IMG/VR virus record: IMGVR_UViG_3300023235_000014
DNA: 50,582 nt
Reading direction: 5' to 3' (one strand)
Origin: a virus
Part shown: piece after piece, positions 119 through 41,830 of the stretch
How positions within the stretch are numbered: position 1 is the stretch's first letter
Layout of the letters: each line of letters starts with the position of its first letter
Program-made: the position numbers and the translations under genes
Notes under the pieces: generated by a model
Database searches by the model: none
Told to the model about the DNA's origin: nothing
Seen by the model: the letters and a program-made list of their open reading frames with translations, nothing else

Positions 119-142
119 AACCCTGCAAGCAGGGTTTTTTCA
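119..142. terminator. Bidirectional intrinsic terminator between convergent genes
   Basis: Hairpin aaccctg-caag-cagggtt (7 bp) followed by TTTTTT on the plus strand. On the minus strand it lies directly after the RNA ligase stop (140..142) and is followed by a T-rich run. Confidence 0.6.
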
Positions 143-5688: not shown

Positions 5689-5718
5689 CGGGGTTATCTT
5701 CTCTTTCTATTCATTTAG

Positions 5719-5790
5719 TGGGTCCACTCAGATTCGAACTGAGAACCAAGAAGTTAAAAGCTTCCTGCACTGCCATTGTGCTATAGACCC
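5719..5790 (-). tRNA. tRNA-Lys(UUU): tRNA-Lys (anticodon UUU)
   Basis: Minus strand reads GGGTCTA-TA-GCAC-AATGGCA-GTGC-A-GGAAG-CTTTTAA-CTTCT-TGGT-TCTCAG-TTCGAAT-CTGAG-TGGACCC-A. Acceptor stem is 7 bp with one G-U pair. The T-loop is TTCGAAT. The anticodon loop CTTTTAA gives anticodon TTT. Discriminator A. No CCA is encoded. Confidence 0.9.
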
Positions 5791-6147: not shown

Positions 6148-6363
6148 TCAAATCACCTTTTCACCTTTTTTTGTGAGGCTGCCGTTCTTTATTTTACAGA
6201 GCCTACTGAATACTTTCAACACACGCAAACGTGGGCAGGTTGGTGTTACCGACACATTAGATGTAGACACCAGAAAGTCACCATGAACAATCAGAGGTGC
6301 ACCACATGCCGCCCGCTCGGCAGCATTCTCTGAATAAATGTGTGTGTACTTACCTTTACTCAC
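6148..6363 (-). CDS. Hypothetical small protein (71 aa, GTG start overlapping the ligase stop)
   Basis: GTGA overlap with the stop of the DNA ligase gene. Weak RBS. Confidence 0.3.
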   Translation of the reverse strand: MSKGKYTHIYSENAAERAACGAPLIVHGDFLVSTSNVSVTPTCPRLRVLKVFSRLCKIKNGSLTKKGEKVI

Positions 6364-7421
6364 TCGTAGTCCCGCACCGCTACGAACTGTGGAAATCTTG
6401 GCACACCAGTTTCCTTGAACGTTTCTGTGTATCGAAAAGTAATTACCGACCCAAGTGGCGGTGGGTTTTTGCGGAGCTTGTGTGTAAGCCCACCAACCTT
6501 AGTTTCAACATTGCCCCACTTCAAACGGATCGAGCCAACCCTACCCTTGTGTTGGCCCTTACCATCGATGTATCCAACGACCACACCCTCATCATCGAAC
6601 CACTTCTTCACCTTCAGGCAGGTGTTGGACTTACCCTCTTCATACATTGAACCAGGCATGCGAATCATGATGCCCTCGCCGCCCTCAGCGACAATCTTGT
6701 CGACTCGCCTGGTAAGATCAGCAGCGGACTTACACCTGGTGTGCGGAAGCACACGAGCAACCCCACCCTTTGAACCAGGCTCCCAGACAGGAAAAAGCCC
6801 CTTGAGAAACTCAACACGAACCTCAAAAGCGTCACCTTGCTCTGGAGCGTCGAAAATCACATATGTGATGTTGTTCCACTCGTCATCATTCGGGATGAGC
6901 TTACGGGCAGCGCCCGAGGTCTTGGTAAAGTTTCCTCGACCAGCAAAAAGCTCGCCATCAAGAACAACGCCCCTGGGCAACTGTTCCTTAAACCACTTGG
7001 GTGCATGGAACTCATTGCCATTGCGACTTAGAAAGCGCTCACCAGTCCACCAGGCTCGAACGCCATCAAGCTTTTCGGACATCCACCAATCAGTCGGGTC
7101 CTCATTCTCCCACTTGTGGGCGAGTAACACGGGAGGTGCAGCATCCTTTTTGACGGCAGCCTTTCTCGGAGCGCCCTTGCCGCCCTTCTTCGGTTTGGCC
7201 TTTTTGCTGTCGTACATCGCATGGGCCTGCGGGAGCAAGCAGGCACGGTCAACGTTCGCACGGATGTGCTTGCAGACACGGAGATCAAGAGGGCCTCCGA
7301 TGTTCCGCCAGGCGGGGCAAGAACAGTCCACCACGCCGCCGACGTTTCTGAGCAGGTATGGTTTCTTTCCTGAACCCTTTACTTCGATTGAGTCGCCGTC
7401 GTTCAAAAACACTTTAGTCAT
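6360..7421 (-). CDS. ATP-dependent DNA ligase with N-terminal SWIM-type zinc finger and a basic Lys/Ala/Pro-rich linker
   Basis: Motif I EKLDGVRAW (KxDGxR), motif IV EGIMIR, motif V LKVKK, and a C-terminal OB-like region. The N-terminus has CSC-x16-CKH (CxC...CxH SWIM pattern) followed by KKAKPKKGGKGAPRKAAVKK. SD AAGGAAA upstream. Confidence 0.85.
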   Translation of the reverse strand: MTKVFLNDGDSIEVKGSGKKPYLLRNVGGVVDCSCPAWRNIGGPLDLRVCKHIRANVDRACLLPQAHAMYDSKKAKPKKGGKGAPRKAAVKKDAAPPVLLAHKWENEDPTDWWMSEKLDGVRAWWTGERFLSRNGNEFHAPKWFKEQLPRGVVLDGELFAGRGNFTKTSGAARKLIPNDDEWNNITYVIFDAPEQGDAFEVRVEFLKGLFPVWEPGSKGGVARVLPHTRCKSAADLTRRVDKIVAEGGEGIMIRMPGSMYEEGKSNTCLKVKKWFDDEGVVVGYIDGKGQHKGRVGSIRLKWGNVETKVGGLTHKLRKNPPPLGSVITFRYTETFKETGVPRFPQFVAVRDYE

Positions 7422-11709: not shown

Positions 11710-14700
11710 TTAGGCGAGAACTTTCGATTCGATGCCGTCGTTTTTGACTTCGATCATTCGTTCAGCAACCTCCTTGACTGGAGTGACATGCGAAATCACA
11801 AGAATCGTCTTGAAGTACCCACGAAGGAAGGTAAGCATATCCATACAGCTCTGGATGTTATTTTCATCCAACGCACCGAAGCCCTCATCGATAATGAGCA
11901 CATCGGGTTTTGGAAGCGACGATAGGTTGATTAACGCAGCCCTTAGGGCCATGCTTGCAATTGTCTTTTCCATGCCAGAAGCCAACTCGATAATACGCTG
12001 GCTGTGTTCATCCTGAATATAGACGTCCATGACATTGGAGTTAATATCAGTCTCCAGACCAATCTTGAAGTCGGTGATACCCTCAAGAATCTTTGACAGT
12101 TCTTCGTTGATGGCAGGAAGCTGGGACTTGAGGACCATAGCGGGGATTCCCGTCTTTGAGAATGCGGATAGGATGGAGTCATAAATCTTCAATTTGCCTA
12201 TCAACGATTTTGTTTCTTCCTCTTCCATAATAAGGTTTTTCAACCCCTCTTTCTTGCCGCCTAGTTTTACCAGGGTTTCCTGGCGCCTTGTTTCAATATC
12301 CGCAACTAGTTGACGACATTTATCAAGCTGAATTTTCTTCTTCTCATACTCTTTGCCCTCTAACACGTTGACCTTCTTCTTCAATGAAGAAATTTCGTCC
12401 TTGATTTTCTTGACTTCAAGTTTTGTTGATGTGAACTCCTTTTTCAGGAGTTCACGGTGCTTTTTGCTTGATTCAATAGTGCGAATAAGATCAAATTCCT
12501 GACGGTCCAAGGTTTGGTGTGTGGTAATCTGCTCACGAAGTTTTTTAGCAACGTACTCTTCAAAAGTCTTTTCATTTATCTCATATTGGGACGTGAGTTT
12601 CTTTACCAGCTCTTCTTGAGTTTTAACCTTCTTTTTGTCTCGGTGACCGTCTTTGATATAATGGCAGTCTGGAAACTGGTCACCACAAGGCACGACTTCC
12701 AGTTTTTTGATGTTCTTTTTCTGGTTGTTTAGTACGGCCTTGTGCGAGTTCAGCTCTGCTCTAAGTTCATGCAAAAGCGACTTTAAGGATTCAAATTCTT
12801 CAAGCTGTTCCTTGAGCGACACAACGTCGATTTTCTTCTTGTCAGCCTTTACGTCTTTCAGCTTAGTTTCATTAGATTTGAGTCCTGATTTTAGTCTTAC
12901 AAGACTGTCTGACTTTGCCTTGACAGTCTTTTCACCAGCAATCACCTTTCGCTCCAGCTCTTCCATGTGAGCGAGGTCGACATCCGCAGCATTTTTTTCG
13001 TGATGCATCAGCCAAAGCTTGACTGAATCCTTTTGCTCACGGAGTTTTCGTAGTCGCTCCTCAAGTGAGCCAACTTCATTTTCTCCCTGGGCAATTATCT
13101 TCCTCGTTTTCACGATTTGATTGCTTACGGTCTGTGGTGAAAGAGAGTTTCCACGAGTGTTAAGTCCGCTGTAATCATCCTTGCAGAGGTAATAGAGGTT
13201 GTCAAATATATCAAGTTCTAGGAAGCGAGCCAGAATTTTCTTTCGCTCTGTTGGGCCTTCCTTGATAAAGCGATCTACCGAGCCCTGAGAGGACAGGGCA
13301 GTCAGTAGAAAGTCATTGGATGTTCCGACAAGCTTTCTGATTTCTTTGTCCGTGTCGTCACGAGTGACGGAGTTCATAACCACTTTTTTCTCGTGACCTG
13401 TTACTTCATCCCGTTCAATGCGATAGAAATTCAAAGTGGTGGTGGTCTTGTTCGGGTCTCGCTTTGAAGTCTTCTTTTTAGGGACGACCCTAGTGCTCTT
13501 TCGTTCAACGATATAATCCGTGCCACCCACATTGATACGGACCTTACCACGACACCAATTTTTACGTCGGTTAATGATGTGAGCATTTTTCATCGGACCA
13601 CGATCGGTGGTGTTGTACAAAACATACATCAAGGCTCCGACAATGCTGCTTTTCCCTATCTTGTTTGGACCGAAAATACCTACTATGCCCTCTAGGTCTG
13701 AGAAATCAATTTTATTGCCTTCGCCGTAACGGAAAATGTTGTCAAACTCCAGATATTTGATCGACCAGTTGGTTGTCCTGGCAATTTTGTCTGAGTCTCG
13801 AATCATGAGCTTTGACATGTAACCACGAATAAGCTGGTCTGCTTCTTCGATAGCATCACGGTCAAAGTTGTAGCTAGCGATATGAGCTGTTAGATAATCT
13901 AAGTAAAGCCGAACAACTGCGTCTGGATCCTGCCTTAGGCTTTTTTTGGAAATCTTAAGGTTGTCATTTGTAGACACATGGTCCATTCTTGACAACATAT
14001 TGTATTTAAAGACTACCTCAGAAGCTTTCTTCTCTTCCCTGAGCGAATGGACCAATTTTCGGGCTTCGACACTAGGAATTGCTGAAGAGGAGGACACACG
14101 GAAACGGCTGCCCTTGAGGAAAGCTCGTGTGCCCCTTGAATCCTTGACTTTTTGCAGTGTGTTTTCAACTGAGCCTTCCCAGCCAATGGTTATAAAGGGC
14201 ATGCGGTTCTCAAGCTCATGGAACTTGATGGACCAGTCATCCTTGTCCTTTATGTCCCAAATCAAGTAACCCTTCTTTTCGGATTCTCCGAAGTTTTGTT
14301 GAATCAGGGAGCCAGGGTAAGCCATCCAAGGCTTAAGTTTTCCATTTTTGTCTTTACGCTGTGCTAGAGTCTGGTGCTTGTGAATGTCACCAAGCAAAGT
14401 AAAATCAAACTGTGCAAAGTCAGTAGTCACTGCTTCGGCGATGCCTTCTGGCATCTTCCAGTTGTTGTCCATTAAAGAACCTGCAACCGAACCGTGGTAT
14501 AATGCTATATTGATCGCCCCTTCGATAGGTTTGACTTTGGGCCAGCCCTTTTGATCAAAAGGGGAATATACACACAGATGGACGTCTTTTCCTTTAACTT
14601 TCTCGCTGAGTTTGAAAGTTCCTGATTCACGTAGTAGGTGAGCACGAGGGTGCGCAATGGATTCGTGAATTGGTGTGATTGTATCCTTGCGATATAAATT

Positions 14701-14958
14701 CGTCAGATTGCCATCGTGATTCCCTAAGATGGTGTAAGACGGTGCGATGTCCGCAAGCGAGCGAAACATCCAAGCAAGCCGTTCAATGATTTCTGGTGTT
14801 ATACCCTGGGTTTTGGTATGGAACGTATCCCCTGTATTCACAATTAGGTCTGGCTTGTGGTGTCGAAGCTCTTCAAAAAGACGTTCAAAAGCTTGAACGT
14901 ACTCTTTATGACGAGAAATGCCACGCCAATGTATGTCGGAGATGTGAGCAATTTTCAT
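11710..14958 (-). CDS. Mre11-Rad50 fusion (SbcD nuclease fused to SbcC ATPase; T4 gp47+gp46 equivalents in one 1082-aa polypeptide)
   Basis: N-terminal calcineurin-like phosphoesterase motifs HISDIHW, GDTFH, GNHD, HGS and GDIHKHQ (Mre11 motifs I to V). Walker A GIFGPNKIGKSS. Long coiled-coil. Signature LASGMEK, Walker B VLIIDEGF and D-loop ALD at the C-terminus. Start taken at the ATG at 14958 (MKIAHISDIHWRG), with AAGGA 9 nt upstream; the longer track start at 15030 is rejected. Confidence 0.85.
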   Translation of the reverse strand: MKIAHISDIHWRGISRHKEYVQAFERLFEELRHHKPDLIVNTGDTFHTKTQGITPEIIERLAWMFRSLADIAPSYTILGNHDGNLTNLYRKDTITPIHESIAHPRAHLLRESGTFKLSEKVKGKDVHLCVYSPFDQKGWPKVKPIEGAINIALYHGSVAGSLMDNNWKMPEGIAEAVTTDFAQFDFTLLGDIHKHQTLAQRKDKNGKLKPWMAYPGSLIQQNFGESEKKGYLIWDIKDKDDWSIKFHELENRMPFITIGWEGSVENTLQKVKDSRGTRAFLKGSRFRVSSSSAIPSVEARKLVHSLREEKKASEVVFKYNMLSRMDHVSTNDNLKISKKSLRQDPDAVVRLYLDYLTAHIASYNFDRDAIEEADQLIRGYMSKLMIRDSDKIARTTNWSIKYLEFDNIFRYGEGNKIDFSDLEGIVGIFGPNKIGKSSIVGALMYVLYNTTDRGPMKNAHIINRRKNWCRGKVRINVGGTDYIVERKSTRVVPKKKTSKRDPNKTTTTLNFYRIERDEVTGHEKKVVMNSVTRDDTDKEIRKLVGTSNDFLLTALSSQGSVDRFIKEGPTERKKILARFLELDIFDNLYYLCKDDYSGLNTRGNSLSPQTVSNQIVKTRKIIAQGENEVGSLEERLRKLREQKDSVKLWLMHHEKNAADVDLAHMEELERKVIAGEKTVKAKSDSLVRLKSGLKSNETKLKDVKADKKKIDVVSLKEQLEEFESLKSLLHELRAELNSHKAVLNNQKKNIKKLEVVPCGDQFPDCHYIKDGHRDKKKVKTQEELVKKLTSQYEINEKTFEEYVAKKLREQITTHQTLDRQEFDLIRTIESSKKHRELLKKEFTSTKLEVKKIKDEISSLKKKVNVLEGKEYEKKKIQLDKCRQLVADIETRRQETLVKLGGKKEGLKNLIMEEEETKSLIGKLKIYDSILSAFSKTGIPAMVLKSQLPAINEELSKILEGITDFKIGLETDINSNVMDVYIQDEHSQRIIELASGMEKTIASMALRAALINLSSLPKPDVLIIDEGFGALDENNIQSCMDMLTFLRGYFKTILVISHVTPVKEVAERMIEVKNDGIESKVLA

Positions 14959-14961
14959 ATT
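14920..14961. repeat. Copy A of a 45-nt duplicated block (true mre11 5' end)
   Basis: gccacgccaatgtatgtcggagatgtgagcaattttcatatt, compared with copy B at 15606..15647, gccacgccaatgaataccagatatgtgagcaattttcatatt. The flanks are identical (20 and 13 nt). The central 12 nt have 5 substitutions. Confidence 0.8.
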
Positions 14962-15644
14962 GAGTCCTTTTTCAGAAGGGCTTTGGTCCGAGCCCCCCAA
15001 GTTTTTGTTTTTTTGTGGCATGAAATACAAAGTGTTCTTCCGTTACCAATATCCCACAGTTCGACACATTTCACAGCTTCCTCCAGGGTCTCGATGGCAT
15101 TTCTCTGTATCAACAGAGCCAGAGGAACAATATGGTCTGCATTCAGATTTCCACCTTTTGTTTTGCAAAATTGACAGGTGTAATCATCTTTTTCAAAAAC
15201 TGCTTGCCGCCAATTCTTGGATTCAATTCTATCTCGCAAGGCTTTGTTTAAGGTTTTCTTGTGTTGGTCTACTGGTTTCCAGTTGGGACTCTTCCTCCCA
15301 GCCAACCTTCCTTTGTTTGCCTTGCTTATTTTGTTCTTGGTGTGGTCAGAATGAGTTTTTCCAAAAAATCCATTGTTCTTACCACAAGTCGCCCGAGACA
15401 TCTTTTCCAAAGATTGCCTTGTGTGCTTACGACCAAAAAAAGCATTTTTGTTGCCCTGGGCAGCTTCTGTTCTAGTTCTTCTCGGGATGCCAAATTTAAT
15501 CAACTTGGCTCGCACAGTCGCATACGTAACGCCAAACAACTCTGCAACTTGCCTTAAAGATAACTCTTGTGTGCAATACAGTTTGGTAAGTGTTTCTTTG
15601 TTAGTGCCACGCCAATGAATACCAGATATGTGAGCAATTTTCAT
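14955..15644 (-). CDS. HNH homing endonuclease (N-terminal HTH, NUMOD3-like repeats, C-terminal HNH); its first 13 codons duplicate the mre11 start
   Basis: MKIAHISGIHWRG, then LRQVAELFGVTYATVRAKLIKFGIP (HTH), then GKTHSDHTKNKISKANKG (NUMOD3-like), then CQFC...NADHIVP...NGRTLCISCH (HNH). The stop TGA overlaps the mre11 ATG. Confidence 0.85.
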   Translation of the reverse strand: MKIAHISGIHWRGTNKETLTKLYCTQELSLRQVAELFGVTYATVRAKLIKFGIPRRTRTEAAQGNKNAFFGRKHTRQSLEKMSRATCGKNNGFFGKTHSDHTKNKISKANKGRLAGRKSPNWKPVDQHKKTLNKALRDRIESKNWRQAVFEKDDYTCQFCKTKGGNLNADHIVPLALLIQRNAIETLEEAVKCVELWDIGNGRTLCISCHKKTKTWGARTKALLKKDSI

Positions 15645-15721: not shown

Positions 15722-16750
15722 TTAATTTAACAGAGACGTGATTCTCATTCTGAGTTCGTAGTTCTCTGTAAGAGGTTTAGCAGAGTTGAGTAGTTTCATA
15801 AACTCGTTTCGAGTCATGTCGCCGATATCCTTGTCCCAGGAGGGGTATTCGAGAATCCGAACTGATATATCAAACTCTGCCAGGCGTTTTGCAAGCCTAA
15901 ATTGTTTTTTCTGAGCCTTGGGTTCAGGGTCAAATGCCAATACAACTGGTGTCTTATTGATAACGATTTTCTGTAAAAGCGCAAATTCTAAAGTCAATTC
16001 CTCAGAGCCAAGAACCGCTGTAGCATTCTGGTTCGCCTTCAGCAAATCAAAGGGGCCTTCGACTATAGTCAAGGGCTCTTCCCAATCAATGTTCAATTCA
16101 TTGAAGATTATCTTACGTCGGTCGCTTGGCGGGTTCTTGTAATTGAACATTGGCTTCCTTGTCCAGGAACGAGCCGTCCAATAAGATAGTTCTCCGCTTG
16201 AATCATAAGACGGAATGATAATGCGATACTTGCACCTAGCTTCACGGTCTTCTGTGATGCCAAGCTTCCAATACCACAACTCAGTCCTTGTATTTATATT
16301 CCTCGATTTTAAATATTCGAGTGCCTGTTGCACATAACGTCGTGTGACAGGAGAATGTATGGAGTCGAAGTCCCTGACAAGCTCTGCCAATAACTTAAAA
16401 CCCGCTGGGAGTTCGACAACAGTTTCTTCTGGCCCTTCATCCGAATCCTGGGCCTCAAGCTCCTCAGCGTTTACAAAAGATTCCTTGTACTCTTTGAGAT
16501 TTGCAGGATGGTATTTGGCGATAAGCTTGTAGATGTTGCGAGCCTTATACCCACAAACCCAACAGTGAACAAAATGCGGATGAACCGTCTTAATGACCAG
16601 CTTCTGCTTAGTGTAAGATGAACCTTTAAATTGCCTGCACATAGGACAAACGACGGAAAAGTTTTTCCCGCCGTTTGAAGGTTTTCCATCGCCAAAAACC
16701 TTTTCTATGAAGTCAATTGCTTGACCTTGTGTGAAATAATTTTGACTCAT
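15722..16750 (-). CDS. DNA primase (T4 gp61 / DnaG-like: zinc ribbon plus TOPRIM)
   Basis: CPMC...HCWVC zinc-binding domain, TOPRIM IVEGPFDLL (EGxxD), and acidic DxD-type residues downstream. Confidence 0.8.
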   Translation of the reverse strand: MSQNYFTQGQAIDFIEKVFGDGKPSNGGKNFSVVCPMCRQFKGSSYTKQKLVIKTVHPHFVHCWVCGYKARNIYKLIAKYHPANLKEYKESFVNAEELEAQDSDEGPEETVVELPAGFKLLAELVRDFDSIHSPVTRRYVQQALEYLKSRNINTRTELWYWKLGITEDREARCKYRIIIPSYDSSGELSYWTARSWTRKPMFNYKNPPSDRRKIIFNELNIDWEEPLTIVEGPFDLLKANQNATAVLGSEELTLEFALLQKIVINKTPVVLAFDPEPKAQKKQFRLAKRLAEFDISVRILEYPSWDKDIGDMTRNEFMKLLNSAKPLTENYELRMRITSLLN

Positions 16751-31015: not shown

Positions 31016-31795
31016 ATGGTTGTTACTGACGAAACTTTGCCTGCAACATTGTTTGAACTTTACATAGCTCAAAAATTGTCTATCCAAAAGATTGCCAAGA
31101 AACTTGACAGCAGCTATGGCACAATTTATCGACGTTTAAAAAAGTTCGGCATTCCCGTAAGAAAAAAAACGGACTATCCTAATCCATTTTTAGGAAAGAC
31201 GCATACATCTGCGGCTCGGCAAAAAATTAGTAAGGCCAACAAAGGTCAGCGTTGGGGTCCGCTTTCCGAAGAGACAAAAAAGAAAATTAGCGAGGCACAC
31301 AAGGGCAAAGTAGTCTCAGCTGAAACAAAACAGAAAATATCCAAAAATCACGCAAACGTATCTGGTCAAAATAATCCGATGTGGGGTGAGAAACACTCTT
31401 TGGAAACACGAAAGAAAATCTCCAAAGCAATTAAAGGAAAATTGCGAACTGGCAGTGAACACCATTGGTATAAAAAACCAAACGAAAGAGTGACTAGCCT
31501 TTTAATGCTAGTTCGAACTTGTACCCAGTACAAAAGCTGGCGTACATCCGTTTACAAGCGTGACAAGTACACGTGTGTTTGGTGTGGAAAAAACACTGGC
31601 AATGACAATAAATGTTGTCTGAACGCTGATCACATCAAGCCATTTGCATTGATCATAAAAGAAAATAAAATTACAACTCTTGAGCAAGCAATTAAATGTA
31701 AGCTGTTGTGGGATATCAAAAATGGCAGAACACTGTGTGTCGAATGCCACAAGACAACGAGTTCATTCGCAAAACGAATTTCTCACTATAGCTAA
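31016..31795 (+). CDS. HNH homing endonuclease (HTH, four NUMOD3-like repeats, HNH), paralog of 14955..15644
   Basis: LYIAQKLSIQKIAKKLDSSYGTIYRRLKKFGIP (HTH). GKTHTSAARQKISKANKG, LSEETKKKISEAHKGK, SAETKQKISKNH and HSLETRKKISKAIKGK (NUMOD3-like). CVWCG...NADHIKPFALI...NGRTLCVECH (HNH). Confidence 0.85.
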   Translation: MVVTDETLPATLFELYIAQKLSIQKIAKKLDSSYGTIYRRLKKFGIPVRKKTDYPNPFLGKTHTSAARQKISKANKGQRWGPLSEETKKKISEAHKGKVVSAETKQKISKNHANVSGQNNPMWGEKHSLETRKKISKAIKGKLRTGSEHHWYKKPNERVTSLLMLVRTCTQYKSWRTSVYKRDKYTCVWCGKNTGNDNKCCLNADHIKPFALIIKENKITTLEQAIKCKLLWDIKNGRTLCVECHKTTSSFAKRISHYS

Positions 31796-31856: not shown

Positions 31857-32630
31857 TTGCTTGAGAAATCTGATTTGCAAGAATGCAAGGAATGGGGATC
31901 TTGGCTAGGCGACCTATTTAGTCATATGCCAGCAAAGACAGCAAAAGAACTCAGGGGCGAGGGTCTGTCCTTATACCTCTTCAGATACTCGGGTGGCCTA
32001 AAGGCTTTTCTTTATGACGGCAATGCTCTTTTAGCCACAGTACTTGAAGAGCTTTTATTGAATGGCGCTGAGGAGGAGTCAGAAGGAGTACGCATCCCAA
32101 AGAAACAAAAACAACTTTGGACTAATGCGGCCCTAGCTGAACTCGACGGTTCCGAAGTTGGTTATGGGATGATAGACGGTAGCTGGAACCGCAGCTGCGG
32201 AGCATTTGAAGTTGAACTGGTCGCAGCGGAGCGTGGCTATGGTCCATTCATGTATGATGTCGCTGGGTCTGTTTTTAAATGGATTATGTCAGACAGGCAA
32301 ACTGTATCTAGCCAGGCTCTTTATGTTTGGGAGTGGATGAAGAAACATCCAGAACTTTACACCAGCAAATATATTGCAGACCCAGAAGTGTCGGATCCCT
32401 TTGACGTGGGCGCTACGGAAGATAACCCGTGTGTTCCTTATACTGAGGAGGAAGTCTTACTGTATGCCTATCGGCCCAAAAATAGTAAAATGGCTAGAAC
32501 AAAAGCCCTGGTCAACAACCACAAAAAAGTAGTTGCTAAACTCAGAGAAAAAGGCGTCTCCGCAAACACGGTCAATGACTGGTTCGCTCGGGCTGCTGAA
32601 GATATGTTTAGAAGCAAGCACCTGTTTTAG
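31857..32630 (+). CDS. Hypothetical protein (257 aa; TTG start, or the ATG at 31926)
   Basis: ORF with a terminator hairpin spanning its stop codon. Confidence 0.5.
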   Translation: MLEKSDLQECKEWGSWLGDLFSHMPAKTAKELRGEGLSLYLFRYSGGLKAFLYDGNALLATVLEELLLNGAEEESEGVRIPKKQKQLWTNAALAELDGSEVGYGMIDGSWNRSCGAFEVELVAAERGYGPFMYDVAGSVFKWIMSDRQTVSSQALYVWEWMKKHPELYTSKYIADPEVSDPFDVGATEDNPCVPYTEEEVLLYAYRPKNSKMARTKALVNNHKKVVAKLREKGVSANTVNDWFARAAEDMFRSKHLF

Positions 32631-32645
32631 AACAGGTGGTTTTAG
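32619..32645 (+). terminator. Intrinsic terminator between convergent genes (CACCTGTT-TTAG-AACAGGTG then GTTTTAG)
   Basis: Perfect 8-bp stem enclosing the stop codon, followed by a T-run. Confidence 0.55.
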
Positions 32646-33298
32646 AAAGTACCTTCAAAGTAAAACGGGTCATTCCGAGGTTCGACAATCATGTCAATGA
32701 CATATTGGATATCCTCTTGAGTTATCTGGTTTGTTCTGTCTGGTTGATTGAATGGAAACATAATTGATTCAATCTCTGGGTCGTGGTTCAAACCGAGCAT
32801 GTGCCCAAATTCGTGAATGGCTGTTGAGGTAATTCGGTCCTGAGGGACACCAGAATGAAATTCGACCCAACCTCGATTGATACTTGTTTTGATTCCAAGA
32901 ATATCTGCCTCATATAGGCGATGAGCAAACCCGTAGTATTGGCCACCACATGGAGACGAGCCAAGTTCGCTTTCGGTAACCCAAATAGTTCCTGTCTGTT
33001 CTGGGTTAGGTCCTTCACCAGCGTAGGTGAAAACTTCTAAACCTGTCTGTTGATTCCAAACTAGCATCGCTTCAAAAGCTGCGCTGCGGCGTTCGTCTCC
33101 CAAATTTGGATCCAACGTAACCCTGATTGGGAATGCATTTTGGCTCCATCTAAGGGGTTGGCCAAAAGAGTTTTCAACTGAATTGGGTCCGTTAATTGGC
33201 AGCTGTTGTCTTTGCCCGCAGATAGGAACATTGATAGCGGCAACACATCCTGATAGAACACCCAGGGCAATAAGCAAAACAGTCAGCTTTTTGAACAT
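32642..33298 (-). CDS. Secreted lipoprotein zinc metallopeptidase of the metzincin type (matrixin/M10-like HExxHxxGxxH)
   Basis: Start taken at the ATG at 33298 (MFKKLTVLLIALGVLSGCVAA: signal peptide plus lipobox LSGC). Zinc site HEFGHMLGLNHD, followed by a Met-turn-like SIMFP. Confidence 0.8.
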   Translation of the reverse strand: MFKKLTVLLIALGVLSGCVAAINVPICGQRQQLPINGPNSVENSFGQPLRWSQNAFPIRVTLDPNLGDERRSAAFEAMLVWNQQTGLEVFTYAGEGPNPEQTGTIWVTESELGSSPCGGQYYGFAHRLYEADILGIKTSINRGWVEFHSGVPQDRITSTAIHEFGHMLGLNHDPEIESIMFPFNQPDRTNQITQEDIQYVIDMIVEPRNDPFYFEGTF

Positions 33299-33330
33299 AT
33301 TGTTAAATAGCGAACCTCTACTTATGGGTG

Positions 33331-35919
33331 ATGCCAAAACGTCGAAAAAGTCTTAAGTCCCTTGTGGAAGCTCTAGAAGAGTCGGGTTATGCTGGCCAAG
33401 GGCACGGTTCGGGTGCAGAAAGTTTCTACGGAGGCTTTTTTGGATATGGTGGGGACAAACAACTCGCTAAAAAACAAGACCCAACTGTTCGCAGAATAAA
33501 GCAAATGACAGACGCTGAAGCTGGAGCTAACTTCCAGGCCAAGCAACAGCGAGGCCGAGGCTACCCCGCTTCTAGAGATAGCCTTGGAATTTCAGACAAG
33601 GGTGGTGTTGGTGCAAGTTTTCCTGGAGAGGAGTTGAACCAGGTGGGCAAAAGTCCACAAAAGCTTGACTCAATGTATATTACAGATCCTCGCAAGGACT
33701 ATTGGAGTGATCGTGTTGTTGAAGACGAGGTGGTAGTCCTGGCTGATGAAGCTGAAGAACAGCGACGTGAAGAAGAGCGGGAACTTAAGGAACAAGGTGG
33801 AACGGCCAGTGGCGGGGGCGCTGGGCGAGCCGTAGCTTCTGATAGCAGGCACAGAGACCTTCCAGGTTGGCCTCGCATGAATTCCGTTGAAGAGCCTGTG
33901 GACTTTGTTCCTGAAGTTGAAGGAGACATCGATGGTGATGGTGAAGAGGACGTGTATTTGGAAGATGACGAATATGTCAATGACGTAATGAGGTTAAATG
34001 GCCTTTCGTTTGCACCAGGTCAATTTAAGCGCCTGTTTGGCGTGGACTCTTTGGAAGAGCGAACCCTTTATCACGGAACTGTCATTGACAACAAGGAAAG
34101 CATAGAAAAATATGGGTTTTCAGGTGAGCTAGGAGATTTCGTAAAAGATTCTTATGGCATGGAATTTGACGACGACACCTTAGAAGGTGTGACTTTTGCT
34201 GCACAAAAAGACGATATGGGTAAAGCCGAAGGTGCAATTCGCTACCACATTGGCAAGAAGATTGGGAAGTCGATCGGTGAGGTTACCATTGAAGACATTC
34301 GTCGTTGGGGCATGCTCGCCGTTCTCAAAGAGATTGAAGAAGACGATGATTACGGCGACGGGTGGAGACGACGTCCTGAAAACTGGGAAGTTGAAGGTTA
34401 CTATGATGAATACCCACCCGCTGTTGAACCTGGTGATTGGTTTACGGAAAATAACGTACACGTAGACCACATACTCACAGGTCAGAAACTTGTAGATTTC
34501 CTCAGACGTCATGGGGCACTTGAACATGTTGAAGGTGAAAATGAAAGAGAAGTTCTTCAGGATTTGATTCAGGCTGCTGTAATCTACCATGGCCCAGATT
34601 CTAGGGATGCCGTGGTGAAAAAAGTTAAAGCGCTGACCCACAAAGAACGTAAAAAGATGCTTTCCGTTTATTTTGACAATTACGGAGATGAAATTCAAGC
34701 CAGGCTTGACAAACAACGACACCAAAAATATGGCACTCAAAAAGCCAAACAACTGAAACTGGACTTCAGCGAGGGTAAATTGTCATTGAAGAGTGTGTTC
34801 TTCGAGAGCAATAGCGAAACTAGAAAAACTGCCGTTATCATTAAAGGAAACCCGAAGTATATCGAAGGTAGCCAAGAAGCCTCCAGCTTCTACAAGGAAA
34901 TAAGATCGTTCTTGGAAGATGAGGGTTATGACGTCCAAATGCATTCAGGCGAGCCTTTTTCAACACCACCCAAGGCAGACCTGTGGGCAGGGCACTCAAG
35001 AGGTGTCGACAGGCTCACCCACGCCCCAGAAGAAATCAAGACAGTTGCAATCGGCACATCCGACGGCATTGCTCATCCCAGGGACAACTCAGCGAAGATA
35101 GATGGCAAACCACCCAAAGGTTTTAAGCCTAACAAATATCACTATGTGTTCACAGACGAGATGAAGAAGGCACTGACGTCTGAAAAGATCGAGGAACAAG
35201 GTTCTAACACACCAGGTGGGTCTGAACGTTACAAACAAGGTAAATTGGTCAGAGACCATGAACCTGATGCGACAAAGAAGCTAATCAAACATGTGGATTA
35301 CACAGGTGGTCATGCAGAAATGGCCGCAGCTAATCACAGCCCAGGAGCACAGGCATACGGAAATGTCGCTGCCCCCAAGGACTTCGTACCAGAGGACTGG
35401 GAACAGAGGCACCCGAAAACGAAAGAAGCACCTATCGACATGGAAACCATGGAAACAATTGAAGAGGTGATTGGACACCTCGTAAAAGAGGCGCTTGCAG
35501 AGCGTACTGTGATGTCCTCAAAGAAACTAGCCAAGAAGCTCCGTAAAAATAGGGAGCCTGGTTGTGACCACGTGAGACAAAAGGGCTCGCACGCAGTCTA
35601 CCAGTGTGGTCTTTGCAGTACCGTCGTTCCAATGCACGGCTCCAAAGACATCAAGCATGGAACCCTCAAGTCGATCGAAAAAGACCTTGAAGGCTGCTTG
35701 GGAAATGACTGGCTCGATGAATCCATTTCCGCCGTGGTGTCTCAGGCGCTCGGTGAGGCTTTCACTGGCATAGATGATGAGACGGGCGAAGGAAAAGCCA
35801 CAGGCGGCTCAGAAGCTTTTAATAAATCCCGTAAGAGTGTTTTAGACTACAATGAGAAGCAAAGTCCTGAAGGCGTAGAAGACCTTGAGAATTATCATCT
35901 AGGAGATGACGACAAATGA
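33331..35919 (+). CDS. Large acidic multidomain protein (about 862 aa) with an ART/Tpt1-like YHGT motif, a GHSRG serine-hydrolase motif and a C-terminal HicA-like domain
   Basis: ATG at 33331 (the track's GTG at 33328 is adjacent). LYHGTVIDNKESIEKYGF at aa about 247 (compare diphtheria toxin SYHGTKPGYVDSIQKG and Tpt1 LYHGT). WAGHSRGV (GxSxG) at aa about 555. KKLAKKLRKNREPGCDHVRQKGSHAVYQ...VPMHGSKDIKHGTLKSIEKDL at aa 729 to 787 matches the HicA family (GSH, PxH, K-GTL). Confidence 0.65.
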   Translation: MPKRRKSLKSLVEALEESGYAGQGHGSGAESFYGGFFGYGGDKQLAKKQDPTVRRIKQMTDAEAGANFQAKQQRGRGYPASRDSLGISDKGGVGASFPGEELNQVGKSPQKLDSMYITDPRKDYWSDRVVEDEVVVLADEAEEQRREEERELKEQGGTASGGGAGRAVASDSRHRDLPGWPRMNSVEEPVDFVPEVEGDIDGDGEEDVYLEDDEYVNDVMRLNGLSFAPGQFKRLFGVDSLEERTLYHGTVIDNKESIEKYGFSGELGDFVKDSYGMEFDDDTLEGVTFAAQKDDMGKAEGAIRYHIGKKIGKSIGEVTIEDIRRWGMLAVLKEIEEDDDYGDGWRRRPENWEVEGYYDEYPPAVEPGDWFTENNVHVDHILTGQKLVDFLRRHGALEHVEGENEREVLQDLIQAAVIYHGPDSRDAVVKKVKALTHKERKKMLSVYFDNYGDEIQARLDKQRHQKYGTQKAKQLKLDFSEGKLSLKSVFFESNSETRKTAVIIKGNPKYIEGSQEASSFYKEIRSFLEDEGYDVQMHSGEPFSTPPKADLWAGHSRGVDRLTHAPEEIKTVAIGTSDGIAHPRDNSAKIDGKPPKGFKPNKYHYVFTDEMKKALTSEKIEEQGSNTPGGSERYKQGKLVRDHEPDATKKLIKHVDYTGGHAEMAAANHSPGAQAYGNVAAPKDFVPEDWEQRHPKTKEAPIDMETMETIEEVIGHLVKEALAERTVMSSKKLAKKLRKNREPGCDHVRQKGSHAVYQCGLCSTVVPMHGSKDIKHGTLKSIEKDLEGCLGNDWLDESISAVVSQALGEAFTGIDDETGEGKATGGSEAFNKSRKSVLDYNEKQSPEGVEDLENYHLGDDDK

Positions 35920-36503
35920 GTAATGATATACCTGAGTGGGAACGTAAATATTGGGCCGAGAAGCAACGGCAGGCAAACCAAGGACACACACATCCCCAGG
36001 ACATACCGCACTATGAGCCTTTGCACGTAACGCAAGGCAGAGAGCGCAATGCCCACAACCCACAGCAACAACACAATCCGCATGCGCCAACTGGCCAATG
36101 GCGAGACGTTGATGCTATGTCAATAATGCAAAGCAGACAAGGTGGAATGGCAATCCCTGGGATGGTTCCATCACCACAAAACGCAAGCGCTCCAATGGTA
36201 ATGCTCCGTGAGGGTGCTCGATTTTATCGTGCAGTTCAGGCCGAAAAATGGGGACATACACAGACTATGGTAAGAAGTGGTGGTGAGGTTCAGGGCGTAG
36301 CTGGAAGGGAATTCCAACTCAAAGGTGAGAGTCAATGTTACTGCATCGATAATCTCCCAGTTGTAGACTTGACTCAAGTCAACCCACAACATATGCTTAA
36401 CCTTGTAGAAGTTAGTGCACCTTTCGTAGGCACAATCTTGGTCGAGCGGAGTGCCGTTGTGCCTGTTGGTCGTACTGGCGGTCCACAACTTTTGAAAGGT
36501 TGA
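35916..36503 (+). CDS. Hypothetical His/Gln/Pro-rich protein (195 aa)
   Basis: ATGA overlap with the upstream gene. Confidence 0.5.
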   Translation: MSNDIPEWERKYWAEKQRQANQGHTHPQDIPHYEPLHVTQGRERNAHNPQQQHNPHAPTGQWRDVDAMSIMQSRQGGMAIPGMVPSPQNASAPMVMLREGARFYRAVQAEKWGHTQTMVRSGGEVQGVAGREFQLKGESQCYCIDNLPVVDLTQVNPQHMLNLVEVSAPFVGTILVERSAVVPVGRTGGPQLLKG

Positions 36504-37551: not shown

Positions 37552-38682
37552 GTGTACTTCACCAGATCAGATACAGGTTTCAGAGTATGGTTTCAAGTTG
37601 TTCGTAATAATGGGCTGCTTAGGACCGACATTACTGGCAGCGACTTTACAGCCCTGGTCGTAGATGCAAGCGATACAACCTCATCACAAATGGTGGTCAC
37701 GCAAAGCCAACAAAAGGCAGGCTTGTACCGTTTTGACGTCCCATCAGTCTTCCTCGTGTCTAATGGTAGTGGCGAATATGGTGTAAGTGTAGAGCTGGAC
37801 ACCTCTTCGCCTCCTCACGTCACCACCGCCTTTTCTGAAATCCTCAAGGTGTCCGAAGATGACTTCAATTCCCTGAGTGGCTCAATCCAGATAGGTGAAG
37901 TCTCCGCTTCCTTTACAGTTGATGTAGACTCAATTGTTTCTGGTGTTTGGAGTGCGGTGACCTCGACGTTCAACTTGTCGGGCACAATGGGCTACATTCA
38001 AAACCAGACGTTCACAAACTCAACAACCATTCTTCAGGACACCCTGTTGCTTATTTCTGGTGTGAATGCTATCCTTGGGCAAACAACAGACATACAGAAC
38101 ATTGTTGCCTCGGGTTCAGTTGAAATAAGCTTAGACTCAATTAATACATTCGTCAGCTCCGTGTGGCAAACAAATGATGTAACATTCAATACCTCAGGCA
38201 CGATGGGCTTCCTTCAGAATCTGATAGACGACATTCGCTTTGAAACAAGTCAGACACTGAATAATACTACAAATATTGCAAATGGAGTCACTGCGAGTCT
38301 AACAACCGAGTCAATCGCTTCAGTAGTTTCGGGTGTGTGGTCAGCTGCCTCGGGTGTGTATGACGCCTCGGGAACCATGGGATTCTTGCAGAACCAAATT
38401 GGAGCTACAGAGATTTCAGCTTCGGTATCGATTAACGAACAGGCGATTGCTAACGCCGTATGGAATACCCTTACTTCCTCAATGACCACCTCGGGTTCTG
38501 CTGGTGCTGTCCTGTTCACGCAAACCGATGCGCTTGCTACCAAGATCTGTGAAATTTATCAGATACTCGGATTAGAGCTTGGTGCCCCGCTTACAGTAAG
38601 TGATGTACAACGAACCGTTGCAGCCATTACTCAGAGTATCTCGTGTGTTGGTGACGTAGTGACTGTCACAAGGACTTCCTGA
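37552..38682 (+). CDS. Fibre-like protein (376 aa) with three internal roughly 75-aa repeats (…SGVWSA…SGTMGF/YLQNQ…)
   Basis: Repeats SIVSGVWSAVTSTFNLSGTMGYIQNQ, TFVSSVWQTNDVTFNTSGTMGFLQNL and SVVSGVWSAASGVYDASGTMGFLQNQ. Confidence 0.55.
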   Translation: MYFTRSDTGFRVWFQVVRNNGLLRTDITGSDFTALVVDASDTTSSQMVVTQSQQKAGLYRFDVPSVFLVSNGSGEYGVSVELDTSSPPHVTTAFSEILKVSEDDFNSLSGSIQIGEVSASFTVDVDSIVSGVWSAVTSTFNLSGTMGYIQNQTFTNSTTILQDTLLLISGVNAILGQTTDIQNIVASGSVEISLDSINTFVSSVWQTNDVTFNTSGTMGFLQNLIDDIRFETSQTLNNTTNIANGVTASLTTESIASVVSGVWSAASGVYDASGTMGFLQNQIGATEISASVSINEQAIANAVWNTLTSSMTTSGSAGAVLFTQTDALATKICEIYQILGLELGAPLTVSDVQRTVAAITQSISCVGDVVTVTRTS

Positions 38683-40552: not shown

Positions 40553-41830
40553 ATGTCAACGTTCCTAACCACTCTTAGACCGACCCCATTTGGTTTTTTT
40601 GATTCTGACCCAATCTTTCAACAAGATGCCGATAAAGTTGTCTTCTTTGTCTTAAGGAAACTCGGGGAAGATGTTCTGAGTGTGGAGCTTACAAAAAAGA
40701 TGGTCTGGGCATGCTTCGAAGAAGCTACTCTGGCCTTCAACTCCCTAATCATAGAATACCAGGCTAAATCAAATCTTGTAACCTTACTAGGCTCTCCCAC
40801 AGGTTCCGTTGACCCAAACAACCCTACAAACAATACGGCAAACCTTTCTGTCAACCTTACTGATGTCTATGTACGTCCAAACTTTGAGTTCCTAATCCGT
40901 CAAGCAGAACCATACGCATCTGAAGTTGGTTTTGGTCAGTCCCTGGATAGTTACAGCGGCTCTATTAACCTCAAGACTGGTGTACAGGATTATGACCTTT
41001 ACACAGCATTGCAAGATGCAGGCGGCACTCCTCTTAGTTCGTACATGACCTCGGGTAGTCAAGGACGTATGAAGGTCGTCGAGGTTTTCCACAACGGACC
41101 AATCCAATTCGTTTACAACTCTAACCTGGCTAGCAACTTTGTCGCTTCAGGTATGCCTGTGGAATCTTTTGTTCCAGATACTCGTTTCTATGTGCTGCCG
41201 CTTTTTGAAGATATTTTGCGTGGCCAAATGATGGAAACAGCACAACGGGTAAGACGCTCGCACTATAGATACCGTCTTTCTGGTCGAAATATCCGAATCT
41301 ATCCTGCTCCCACAAACCTACTCCCAGGTTTCACAGACAAACTCTGGATTCGTGTGGCCTTCCCACCTTCAGCTGCACCTGGCATCGTCGGTACTGACTT
41401 CGTTAGTGGTACTCTCGGTCTCAATAGCGGACAGAATGCCGCCATCCCCGATGGAACCCTCTTCGGTGTCTCCCATCCAGCCAATATCCCATTCGGCCTG
41501 ATCAACTACTCAACCCTAAACCCTTGGGCCAAACACTGGATCTACCAATACACACTCGCCCTTGCTCGTGAGCTTCTTGGGCTCGTCCGCAACAAGTTCA
41601 AAAACTTCCCAATCCCAAATGCTGAACTCACACTCAATGGTGACGACCTCGTCGCCCAAGGACGTGAAGACAAAGCTAGCCTGCTATACGGTGAAGGTGG
41701 GCTCTCACAAAAACTAGACAACCTAACCTATGATAAACTCGCAGAAATCGAAGCCAATAAGGCCGAGTTCCAACTAAAACAACTTCAGATGATGCCTATG
41801 CCACCGAAATATGTTATAAGCTTTGGTTGA
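40553..41830 (+). CDS. Hypothetical protein (425 aa), possibly a structural protein
   Basis: Long ORF. No diagnostic motif. Confidence 0.55.
   Translation: MSTFLTTLRPTPFGFFDSDPIFQQDADKVVFFVLRKLGEDVLSVELTKKMVWACFEEATLAFNSLIIEYQAKSNLVTLLGSPTGSVDPNNPTNNTANLSVNLTDVYVRPNFEFLIRQAEPYASEVGFGQSLDSYSGSINLKTGVQDYDLYTALQDAGGTPLSSYMTSGSQGRMKVVEVFHNGPIQFVYNSNLASNFVASGMPVESFVPDTRFYVLPLFEDILRGQMMETAQRVRRSHYRYRLSGRNIRIYPAPTNLLPGFTDKLWIRVAFPPSAAPGIVGTDFVSGTLGLNSGQNAAIPDGTLFGVSHPANIPFGLINYSTLNPWAKHWIYQYTLALARELLGLVRNKFKNFPIPNAELTLNGDDLVAQGREDKASLLYGEGGLSQKLDNLTYDKLAEIEANKAEFQLKQLQMMPMPPKYVISFG

Follow-up and report, generated by a model that had tools for sequence, protein, structure and literature searches.

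A candidate polyvalent effector carrier with exchangeable cassettes in an uncultivated T4-like jumbo phage

Introduction

A 50,582-nucleotide stretch of viral DNA (IMG/VR record IMGVR_UViG_3300023235_000014; hereafter the window, meaning the whole stretch at its full length) carries a divergently oriented pair of genes, one for a predicted protease of the metzincin type and the other for a protein of 863 amino acids (aa). An earlier reading of the letters alone, hereafter the original prediction, proposed that the long protein combines an ADP-ribosyltransferase (ART)-like domain, a hydrolase, and an embedded HicA toxin, and that the 2 genes together form an effector locus matching no described system. 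The locus thus raises the questions of what kind of protein the long open reading frame (ORF) encodes and whether its neighbor belongs to the same system. Our analysis suggests that the product of the long ORF, in an uncultivated T4-like jumbo phage, is a polyvalent effector carrier that is delivered in the virion and bears exchangeable cassettes, a reading to which we assign a probability of about 0.5.

Results

A conserved chassis with 3 variable slots

Both ORFs are present in the window, arranged divergently across a 32-bp gap as originally described (Table 1). The long ORF is not an assembly artifact, because an identical 862-aa protein (P0001) is encoded on 5 contigs from 3 sources, the longest of which, ena:ERZ27315719:k141_17111, measures 284,850 bp and is the contig onto which the window maps. 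The protein is acidic, as had been noted, with a net negative charge in every segment but HicA. A 190-aa minus-strand ORF (34180-34752), nested within the long ORF and lacking any support, was rejected as a gene.

We assembled a first set of 12 full-length homologues, and a profile search with the N-terminal part added 11 more clear members of 358-436 aa without any insert, bringing the whole family to 23. Alignment of the 12 full-length proteins revealed 3 conserved blocks (N, middle, and C), between which lie regions that a given protein either has in full or lacks altogether. The family is built on a conserved acidic, glycine-rich, low-complexity chassis of ~400 aa with 3 insertion points, or slots, which is cargo-less in about half of the members; this chassis with variable slots is the main structural point absent from the original prediction. 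The N part is kept in 23 of 23 members, with E18, G20, and DxDGDGEED invariant or near-invariant and RDLPGFPR lying in a conserved block. The middle block, conserved across the 12 homologues, corresponds to aa 624-700 (ERYKQG...HVDYSGGH...PKDFVPEDWEQRHPKTKE), and K636, G638, D657, P683, K684, V687, P688, D690, W691, Q693, and R694 of the middle part are invariant in the 23 sequences. The family form of the C part is EAYTGIDDETG...GGSxAF...NYH.

In the window protein, all 3 slots are occupied. Slot 1 holds an ART-like domain in the window protein and in P0004-P0010, a shorter LYHGT domain in P0012, and an unknown segment of 92 aa in P0011. Slot 2 is filled, within the chassis family, only in the window protein and P0002, in both cases by a domain with a GHSRG motif. 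Slot 3 contains HicA in the window protein, P0002, P0003, P0004, and P0011, and an unrelated basic 189-aa insert in P0005 (L001 10001-12544). The latter insert, with the motif YPSAYANAYASKWYKDKGGGW and a faint match to DUF5872, is another candidate cargo.

Close relatives thus bear different cargo combinations, and cassettes have been gained and lost over short evolutionary distances, because the N part of P0003 is 82% identical to that of the window protein, yet P0003 lacks the ART and hydrolase cassettes; because HicA cassettes are 71-83% identical between relatives, compared with 48-82% for the chassis N part; and because the GC content at third codon positions is 0.58 in the HicA cassette and 0.52 in the GHSRG cassette, against 0.40-0.43 elsewhere. 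A search for DNA repeats at the cassette borders returned short chance matches only. The chassis itself had no match in Pfam, PHROG, or PDB and none among cultured phages even at E ≤ 1, and a scan of viral contigs located chassis genes also on IMG/VR contigs of 206 kb and 461 kb. The possibility of a tape-measure protein was rejected, as the sequence is not helical or coiled, is too short, and lies in the wrong position.

Identity of the cargo domains

Each cargo type also exists elsewhere as a small stand-alone protein. For slot 3, 3 lines of evidence agree: Pfam PF07927 (HicA_toxin) matches aa 744-787 (E = 5.6e-10; 39.6 bits vs a curated cutoff of 27), PHROG 353 (“toxin”) spans aa 728-795 (E = 5.8e-14), and a solved HicA chain can be aligned with aa 729-787, its GSH falling on the GSH of the window protein. 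The embedded HicA that the original prediction had placed at aa 729-787, naming a PF07927 search as its check, is thereby upheld. PF07927 is matched by 5 of the 12 full-length homologues (best E = 7.4e-12), and the alignment of these 12 shows KGSH and VPxH...D...G kept in all five HicA-bearing members. The embedded domain is predicted to be an mRNA interferase; in Burkholderia HicA, Gly22 and His24 of the G-S-H loop are needed for toxicity (PMC3969222). A flanking chassis helix, LxExIxxxVxEAL, is duplicated around HicA. The domain resembles the toxin of type II HicAB toxin-antitoxin systems in its above-cutoff PF07927 match, its G-S-H motif, and its P...H...D...G pattern, but differs from it in being an internal domain of an 863-aa protein with no HicB adjoining: the flanking ORFs of the long gene gave no Pfam or PHROG match to HicB. 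Among the 14 HicA contexts catalogued in a preprint (Gerdes 2023), a phage structural context is absent.

The slot 2 domain matches PHROG 30942, a group of unknown function, over aa 502-618 (E = 2.4e-19), and it is the only part of the long protein that matched anything in a tblastn search of cultured phages, where it retrieved hypothetical proteins encoded by phiKZ-like jumbo phages (e.g., gp429 of 201phi2-1). With aa 500-641 as the query, we recovered 44 homologues, mostly stand-alone (117-172 aa), from phage contigs and bacteria of the candidate phyla radiation (CPR). Their alignment contains an invariant G-N-P after the first strand, an invariant Tyr, and an invariant G-H-S-x-G, together with a near-invariant Asp (HPxD) and His (xHY), giving the Ser-Asp-His order found in alpha/beta hydrolases. 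The G-x-S-x-G nucleophile elbow follows a hydrophobic strand, LW(A/I/V)GHSRG, in which G, H, S, and G are invariant (n = 44); the window protein has WAGHSRGV at aa 553-560. A PDB profile search with the family returned nothing at E ≤ 10, a Pfam scan of the 44 members gave just one weak match (DUF915, 1/44), and hhalign against the E. coli esterase YqiA gave a probability of 0.3%. The hydrolase of the original prediction remains putative, having a conserved Ser/Asp/His pattern but no profile link to a Pfam or PDB hydrolase. One stand-alone copy (L029 5001-5423), from a groundwater CPR bacterium (Candidatus Nomurabacteria), stands by itself among housekeeping genes, set off from them by long spacers, a neighborhood that is uninformative on function.

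In slot 1, the LYHGT region (LYHGTVIDNKESIEKYG, aa 246-262) has no match in a Pfam scan of the window protein, and neither Pfam nor PHROG detected Alt or VIP2 in that protein. Searching 1.84 billion representatives by phmmer with aa 238-505, we obtained 327 clusters at E ≤ 1e-3, mostly stand-alone proteins of 170-260 aa, with some members inside proteins of 1,000-5,000 aa. In an alignment of 81 sequences, the invariant positions are the His, Gly, and Thr of LYHGT, one Tyr, the Glu of VEPGD, and one further Gly; no Arg occurs among the invariant or near-invariant columns. The family profile matches Tpt1/KptA chains (E = 3.6e-5) exactly over the LYHGT strand and the next helix, and sub-threshold Pfam matches to Tpt1 and PARP were obtained for 15 and 7 of the 81 members, respectively, whereas ART-PolyVal (PF18760) matched neither the window protein nor any of the 81. 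AlphaFold modeling of aa 238-505 with the 81-sequence alignment reached a pLDDT of 90.8, superseding an unusable run with 9 sequences (pLDDT 53.6). Foldseek searches with the model again retrieved ART-type folds (Tpt1/KptA kin) with weak E-values, and a fold search of BFVD was similarly weak, returning gp53 of Bacillus phage G (E = 7e-4), DarT lower down, and, among the lower ranks, a phage protein annotated as “putative RNA 2'-phosphotransferase.” Judged from the model and the family profile, the LYHGT region is an ART-fold domain of a family not covered by the Pfam copy used. The ART-like assignment of the original prediction is accordingly borne out at the level of the fold; of the ART-clan search that it had recommended, the part run with the window protein alone was negative in Pfam, and the 81-member profile matched Tpt1/KptA chains.

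Kinship with Tpt1/KptA raises the alternative that the long protein serves RNA repair or processing, its Tpt1-like domain stripping 2'-phosphates and its HicA binding or cutting RNA, in concert with the phage RNA ligase and against host anticodon nucleases. Tpt1/KptA is the closest neighbor of the ART domain in both sequence and structure, the window encodes a T4 Rnl1-type RNA ligase, and KptA is frequent in jumbo phages (PMC9503650). The match to Tpt1/KptA and DarT, however, is restricted to the NAD lobe, with scores that set the phage domain apart as a distinct family within the ART superfamily, and none of the 81 members reaches the Pfam Tpt1 (PF01885) cutoff. Tpt1 enzymes are marked by an Arg-His-Arg-Arg catalytic tetrad; identity with Tpt1 was rejected, given that only the NAD lobe aligns, that no Arg is conserved, and that the N-terminal RNA-binding lobe is missing. 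The ART domain is, moreover, optional among close relatives, unlike a component of a repair pathway, and an RNA repair role appears highly improbable.

Genomic context

Upstream of the locus lie large, baseplate-like ORFs without family matches (813, 1364, 602, 237, 391, and 782 aa), the last of which has an orthologue with a faint LamG match. Downstream, the 195-aa protein is followed by small ORFs, a repeat-containing 376-aa protein, and a neck protein of the gp13 family, beyond which come gp14-like and gp15-like proteins and 2 sheath paralogues. The gp13-like protein has a precomputed Pfam assignment (PF26809, Phage_T4_gp13) and is 30% identical to that of Microcystis phage Mel-JY01; our own Pfam scan of it at E ≤ 0.01 gave no match, probably owing to a difference in library version. 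Pfam and PHROG searches of 20 neighboring ORFs identified only an HNH endonuclease and a weak head-tail adaptor match. Because of the gp13, gp14, gp15, and sheath neighbors and the kinship with Mel-JY01, we regard the phage as a divergent uncultivated T4-like jumbo myovirus, in which the long gene occupies a late structural block extending from baseplate-like to neck and sheath genes. The likeness to virion-packaged effectors such as T4 Alt, drawn in the original prediction, gains from this position, since alt of T4 likewise lies in the baseplate-to-neck block.

The 195-aa protein is conserved: its gene overlaps or nearly abuts the chassis gene in the window, L003, L007, L008, L009, L011, and L012, and its orthologues (177-196 aa, 47-81% identity) are present also in the lineage without the metzincin. 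Searches of Pfam, PHROG, and PDB returned nothing for this protein, which could assist the chassis as a partner or chaperone. These features bear on another explanation, namely, that the chassis has an ordinary role in the structure or assembly of the neck/baseplate region and that its inserts are displayed passengers or decaying remnants. Conservation of the cargo-less chassis on its own, in a structural block and beside a conserved, apparently translationally coupled partner, would be expected of such a protein; yet different phages share the catalytic-type residues of all 3 cargos, the conservation of HicA exceeds that of the chassis, and NAD-dependent and RNase activities would be senseless outside a cell. 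We consider this explanation unlikely.

Several further features of the region can be noted. The HNH homing endonuclease gene (PHROG) and the 257-aa ORF stand between the 782-aa LamG-like gene and the metzincin gene; because these 2 genes directly adjoin in L007 and L009, the pair looks like a mobile insertion into the structural block. The 376-aa protein contains four ~55-aa repeats, each ending ...VW(S/Q/N)..T..SGTMG(Y/F)(I/L)QN, has no Pfam or PHROG match, and is possibly a fiber or whisker protein. The sheath paralogues (1026 and 1004 aa) were located in L006 (12406-19632), about 1.8-9 kb past the right end of the window; both match the Mel-JY01 sheath and their genes are separated by a GIY-YIG endonuclease gene. 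The minus-strand genes in the first part of Table 1's neighborhood list, for RNA ligase, tRNA-Lys, DNA ligase, an SbcC/gp46-like subunit, and primase, together make up a replication and repair set resembling that of T4. We detected no sigma-70-like site in the 32-bp spacer; a scan for sigma-70 promoters and terminators remained at chance level, and neither the T4 late promoter TATAAATA nor the spacer motif GTTAAATAG is enriched in the window.

Table 1. Features of the locus, followed by neighboring genes (window coordinates)
Feature	Position	Strand	Details
Matrixin-like (M10) metzincin, 218 aa, predicted lipoprotein	32642..33298	-	Pfam Peptidase_M10
Zinc-binding motif HEFGHMLGLNHD, then Met-turn SIMFP	32780..32815	-	
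Signal peptide with lipobox MFKKLTVLLIALGVLSGC	33245..33298	-	Read from sequence
Spacer between the two divergent start codons	33299..33330	.	32 bp
Candidate polyvalent chassis-plus-cargo protein	33328..35919	+	863 aa from GTG 33328, or 862 aa from ATG 33331
Chassis N part (aa 1-244)	33328..34059	+	L16-E-E18|SGY propeptide-like motif, Gly/aromatic-rich segment, acidic DIDGDGEED
Slot 1 cargo: ART-fold domain (LYHGT; aa about 245-455) and helical extension to aa 493	34060..34806	+	
Slot 2 cargo: 120-aa GNP...GHSRG...HPxD...HY domain, putatively hydrolase-like	34807..35196	+	PHROG 30942
Chassis middle part (aa 624-725): ERYKQG...HVDYTGGH...PKDFVPEDWEQRHPKTKE, then amphipathic helix	35197..35502	+	
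Slot 3 cargo: HicA domain (aa about 729-790) between two copies of the chassis helix	35503..35721	+	Pfam, PHROG, solved-chain alignment
Chassis C part (aa 799-863, EAFTGIDDETG...GGSEAF...NYH) and stop codon	35722..35919	+	
Conserved 195-aa protein, translationally coupled	35916..36503	+	ATGA overlap
T4 Rnl1-type RNA ligase	140-1384	-	
tRNA-Lys(UUU)	5718-5790	-	
ATP-dependent DNA ligase	6360-7421	-	
SbcC/gp46-like nuclease subunit	11710-15030	-	
Primase	15722-16750	-	
HNH homing endonuclease	31016-31795	+	PHROG
257-aa ORF	31857-32630	+	
376-aa repeat protein	37552-38682	+	
gp13-like neck protein	40553-41830	+	PF26809 (precomputed)

Packaging and processing of the long protein

In T4, the prohead protease gp21 cleaves after Glu and removes propeptides of 7-65 aa from Alt, internal proteins, and capsid proteins; residues 8 and 10 of the capsid-targeting sequence (CTS) govern processing, “LIE” fits the gp21 cleavage logo, and a 10-residue CTS is enough to load foreign proteins into T4 heads (PMC9026906, PMC5694885). 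All 23 chassis proteins contain [LFVMI]-x-E-[AGS]-G-[YH] at 18-50 aa from a highly variable N terminus, and thus share with Alt and the CTS-targeted internal proteins (IPI-III) of T4 a short N-terminal segment that ends in hydrophobic-x-Glu and is followed by a small residue. Comparable motifs occur in the linkers that bear the cassettes: L242-x-E244 ahead of slot 1 in 12 of 12 members of the first set, a phi-x-x-phi-F-x-E linker (phi, hydrophobic residue) ahead of the middle block in nearly all members, and L/I-x-E directly on either side of HicA.

These features suggest how a virion-delivered effector carrier might operate. The long protein would be made late, together with the structural genes, and the chassis would carry it into the virion by means of the N-terminal hydrophobic-x-Glu-(A/G/S)-G-Y segment, which resembles a T4 capsid-targeting propeptide with its gp21 site. 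The prohead protease may then cut at the conserved hydrophobic-x-Glu motifs in the linkers, and the protein or its fragments would be injected along with the phage DNA. Inside the host, each cargo would have its own target: a host macromolecule to be ADP-ribosylated by the ART domain, host mRNA to be cut by HicA, and some substrate for the small putative hydrolase. HicA would require no antitoxin, as it would have been kept in the capsid until then. Whereas the domain identities and the modular architecture follow directly from the comparisons described above, we infer packaging, proteolytic release, injection, and targets from motifs and gene position.

A more specific version of this scheme, which we put forward as tentative and distinctly less probable than the general one, treats the chassis as a natural 3-slot vehicle: a CTS-type propeptide would direct it to the prohead, gp21-type cuts would bracket each slot, the freed ART, hydrolase, and antitoxin-less HicA would be injected for host shutdown, and the cassettes would be swapped as part of an arms race. 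If this were true, the chassis would be a natural counterpart of engineered T4 CTS-fusion packaging, and HicA would be the first toxin-antitoxin toxin deployed as an injected phage weapon.

Several observations weigh against delivery in the virion. The hydrophobic-x-Glu motifs coincide with chassis linkers or the chassis helix, are found also in cargo-less members, and around HicA reflect a helix that is merely duplicated; they are, moreover, common in an acidic protein (the window protein has 21), and their role may be structural instead of marking points of cleavage. In neither the window nor the 10 kb flanking it on each side did we find a prohead protease gene, so that a gp21-type protease can only be presumed for this phage; Mel-JY01, its closest cultured relative by gp13, has such a protease along with a T4-type capsid gene, and when metagenomes were scanned with that protease, relatives of Mel-JY01 alone were recovered. 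Similarity searches linked the chassis to no known virion protein, including Alt and the internal proteins. With regard to the cargos, “hydrolase-like” is a putative, motif-level designation for a domain (~120 aa) far smaller than canonical alpha/beta hydrolases, and the ART active-site geometry of the invariant His, Tyr, and Glu is likewise putative, being read from alignment columns.

An alternative is a multi-enzyme protein that stays in the cytoplasm, is never packaged, and acts in host shutoff or counter-defense, with the chassis as a flexible linker or regulator restraining the toxins. That the low-complexity chassis matches no virion protein would be expected in that case, and bacterial fused HicA proteins are regulated in cis (Gerdes 2023 preprint). 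A cytoplasmic role is harder to reconcile with a gene that is co-oriented within the baseplate-to-neck block in every lineage having an M10 neighbor, or with an invariant propeptide-like N-terminal motif, which has no obvious role in a purely cytoplasmic enzyme; furthermore, a late-active HicA without a nearby HicB would seem harmful to the phage itself. We regard this possibility as doubtful, though far from negligible.

The divergently encoded metzincin

The start codon of the metzincin gene is most likely ATG 33298 (MFKK...LSGC), which places it exactly 32 bp from the ATG of the long ORF. Pfam Peptidase_M10 matches its product well above the cutoff (E = 2.9e-10; 40.7 bits vs 24), and a profile of 5 orthologues matches the catalytic domains of matrix metalloproteinases (MMPs) and karilysin. 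In the alignment of the 5 orthologues, H162, E163, H166, G169, H172, D173, and M180 are invariant (HExGHxLGLxHD, SIM(F/Y)P), as are the lipobox Cys18, C27, and C117; the lipobox is a pattern match, with atypical residues at -3/-2 in three orthologues. The protein thus resembles matrixins (M10A) such as karilysin and MMP catalytic domains in its HExxHxxGxxH motif, its Met-turn, and its Pfam and PDB profile matches, but differs in being phage-encoded, in its lipoprotein signal, and in having no recognized propeptide Cys-switch. The secreted, lipobox-bearing metzincin of the original prediction, for which an M10 profile search had been suggested, is in agreement with all of these results, and so is the remark that such a protein is unusual for a phage, as no relative was found by tblastn in 50,697 cultured-phage records (E ≤ 1e-3).

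Orthologues of the metzincin gene occupy the same divergent position in L001/L002, L007, L008, L009, and L012, and one of the 6 loci has a cargo-less chassis. The gene is absent from the lineage of P0006 and P0207, where RNase T and a ClpP-like protease are encoded upstream instead; in L003 (8671-9902) and L011 (8704-9928), genes for a ClpP-like protease and an RNase T-like exonuclease lie on the minus strand in the divergent upstream position.

A functional pair, in which the metzincin processes the polyprotein or both proteins act on the host envelope, could explain why the divergent adjacency is kept in 6 loci, down to about 40% chassis identity. Polyvalent proteins often carry a zincin peptidase thought to process them (PMC5512222), and the lineage without M10 has a ClpP-like protease gene nearby. 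However, the signal peptide, the lipobox Cys, and the conserved Cys pair imply that the metzincin should be extracytoplasmic, whereas the long protein has no signal peptide; the whole neighborhood is syntenic, so that adjacency carries little weight; and the pairing exists also with a cargo-less chassis. A working pair therefore seems very unlikely. Because of this last pairing and the synteny of the region, the association of metzincin and chassis predates the toxins, and the single effector locus originally proposed is not supported. Given this synteny and the predicted export of the protease, we treat the metzincin as a neighbor with a separate, envelope-directed role: a predicted separately exported envelope protease and syntenic neighbor of the long protein rather than a demonstrated partner.

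Relationship to known systems

The view that the locus could not be matched to a described system finds no support, because the long protein fits the class of polyvalent proteins of phages and conjugative elements delineated by Iyer, Burroughs, Anand, de Souza, and Aravind in 2017 (PMC5512222). The same ART-like domain is present in proteins of 1,394-4,678 aa together with PBECR5, ART-PolyVal, NUDIX, SET, and poly(A) polymerase domains, of which PBECR5 and ART-PolyVal are classed by Pfam as associated with polyvalent proteins; in P0148 and P0149, the LYHGT domain and ART-PolyVal form separate, adjacent regions. The 2017 paper and a 2022 survey of viral NAD systems (PMC9503650) argue that polyvalent proteins and many myovirus ARTs are packaged and injected, and place T4 alt-like genes next to baseplate genes.

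The long protein resembles polyvalent proteins in uniting several unrelated effector domains, including an ART, in one phage polypeptide (ART-fold, hydrolase-like, and HicA), in its late, virion-gene context in a tailed phage, and in architectures that vary between relatives. It differs in lacking MuF, a zincin peptidase, a DarB-type domain, or another signature domain, in having an ART that is not of the ART-PolyVal (H-Y-D) family, and in having its cargo inserted at 3 fixed slots within a conserved, non-globular chassis, which other family members have in empty form, an organization absent from the searched passages of PMC5512222. HicA does not occur in the main text of PMC5512222 and is not mentioned in PMC9503650 either. 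The protein also recalls T4 Alt, since in both cases a T4-like phage encodes an ART next to its baseplate genes. Alt, however, is an ART of the R-S-E class (PMC5512222), whereas the domain in slot 1 has invariant His, Tyr, and Glu and resembles Tpt1, DarT, and PARP; in addition, the long protein is only a candidate for packaging. Polymorphic toxins (Rhs and contact-dependent inhibition systems) also combine a conserved delivery part with swappable toxin modules that differ between close relatives, but these have a variable C-terminal tip, are followed by immunity genes, and are secreted by bacteria, whereas the chassis has 3 internal slots, belongs to a phage, and has no recognized immunity gene. 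The kind of protein is thus already known, namely, polyvalent proteins; the new elements are the chassis-with-slots organization, HicA as cargo, and 2 unnamed domain families.

Discussion

The comparisons described here point to the long ORF as a candidate virion-delivered polyvalent effector carrier. Should packaging and processing occur as proposed, T4-like jumbo phages would possess swappable toxin cassettes on a dedicated carrier, extending the polyvalent idea to internal slots, and HicA, so far seen as a bacterial toxin or defense module, would join the offensive weapons of phages. Two unnamed families widespread in phages would also be defined, the ART-fold family (>300 clusters) and the 120-aa GHSRG family, and the chassis could provide an existing scaffold with which to load foreign proteins into phage particles. 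Even if the protein is not packaged, its cassettes clearly illustrate modular evolution at the level of domains among closely related phages.

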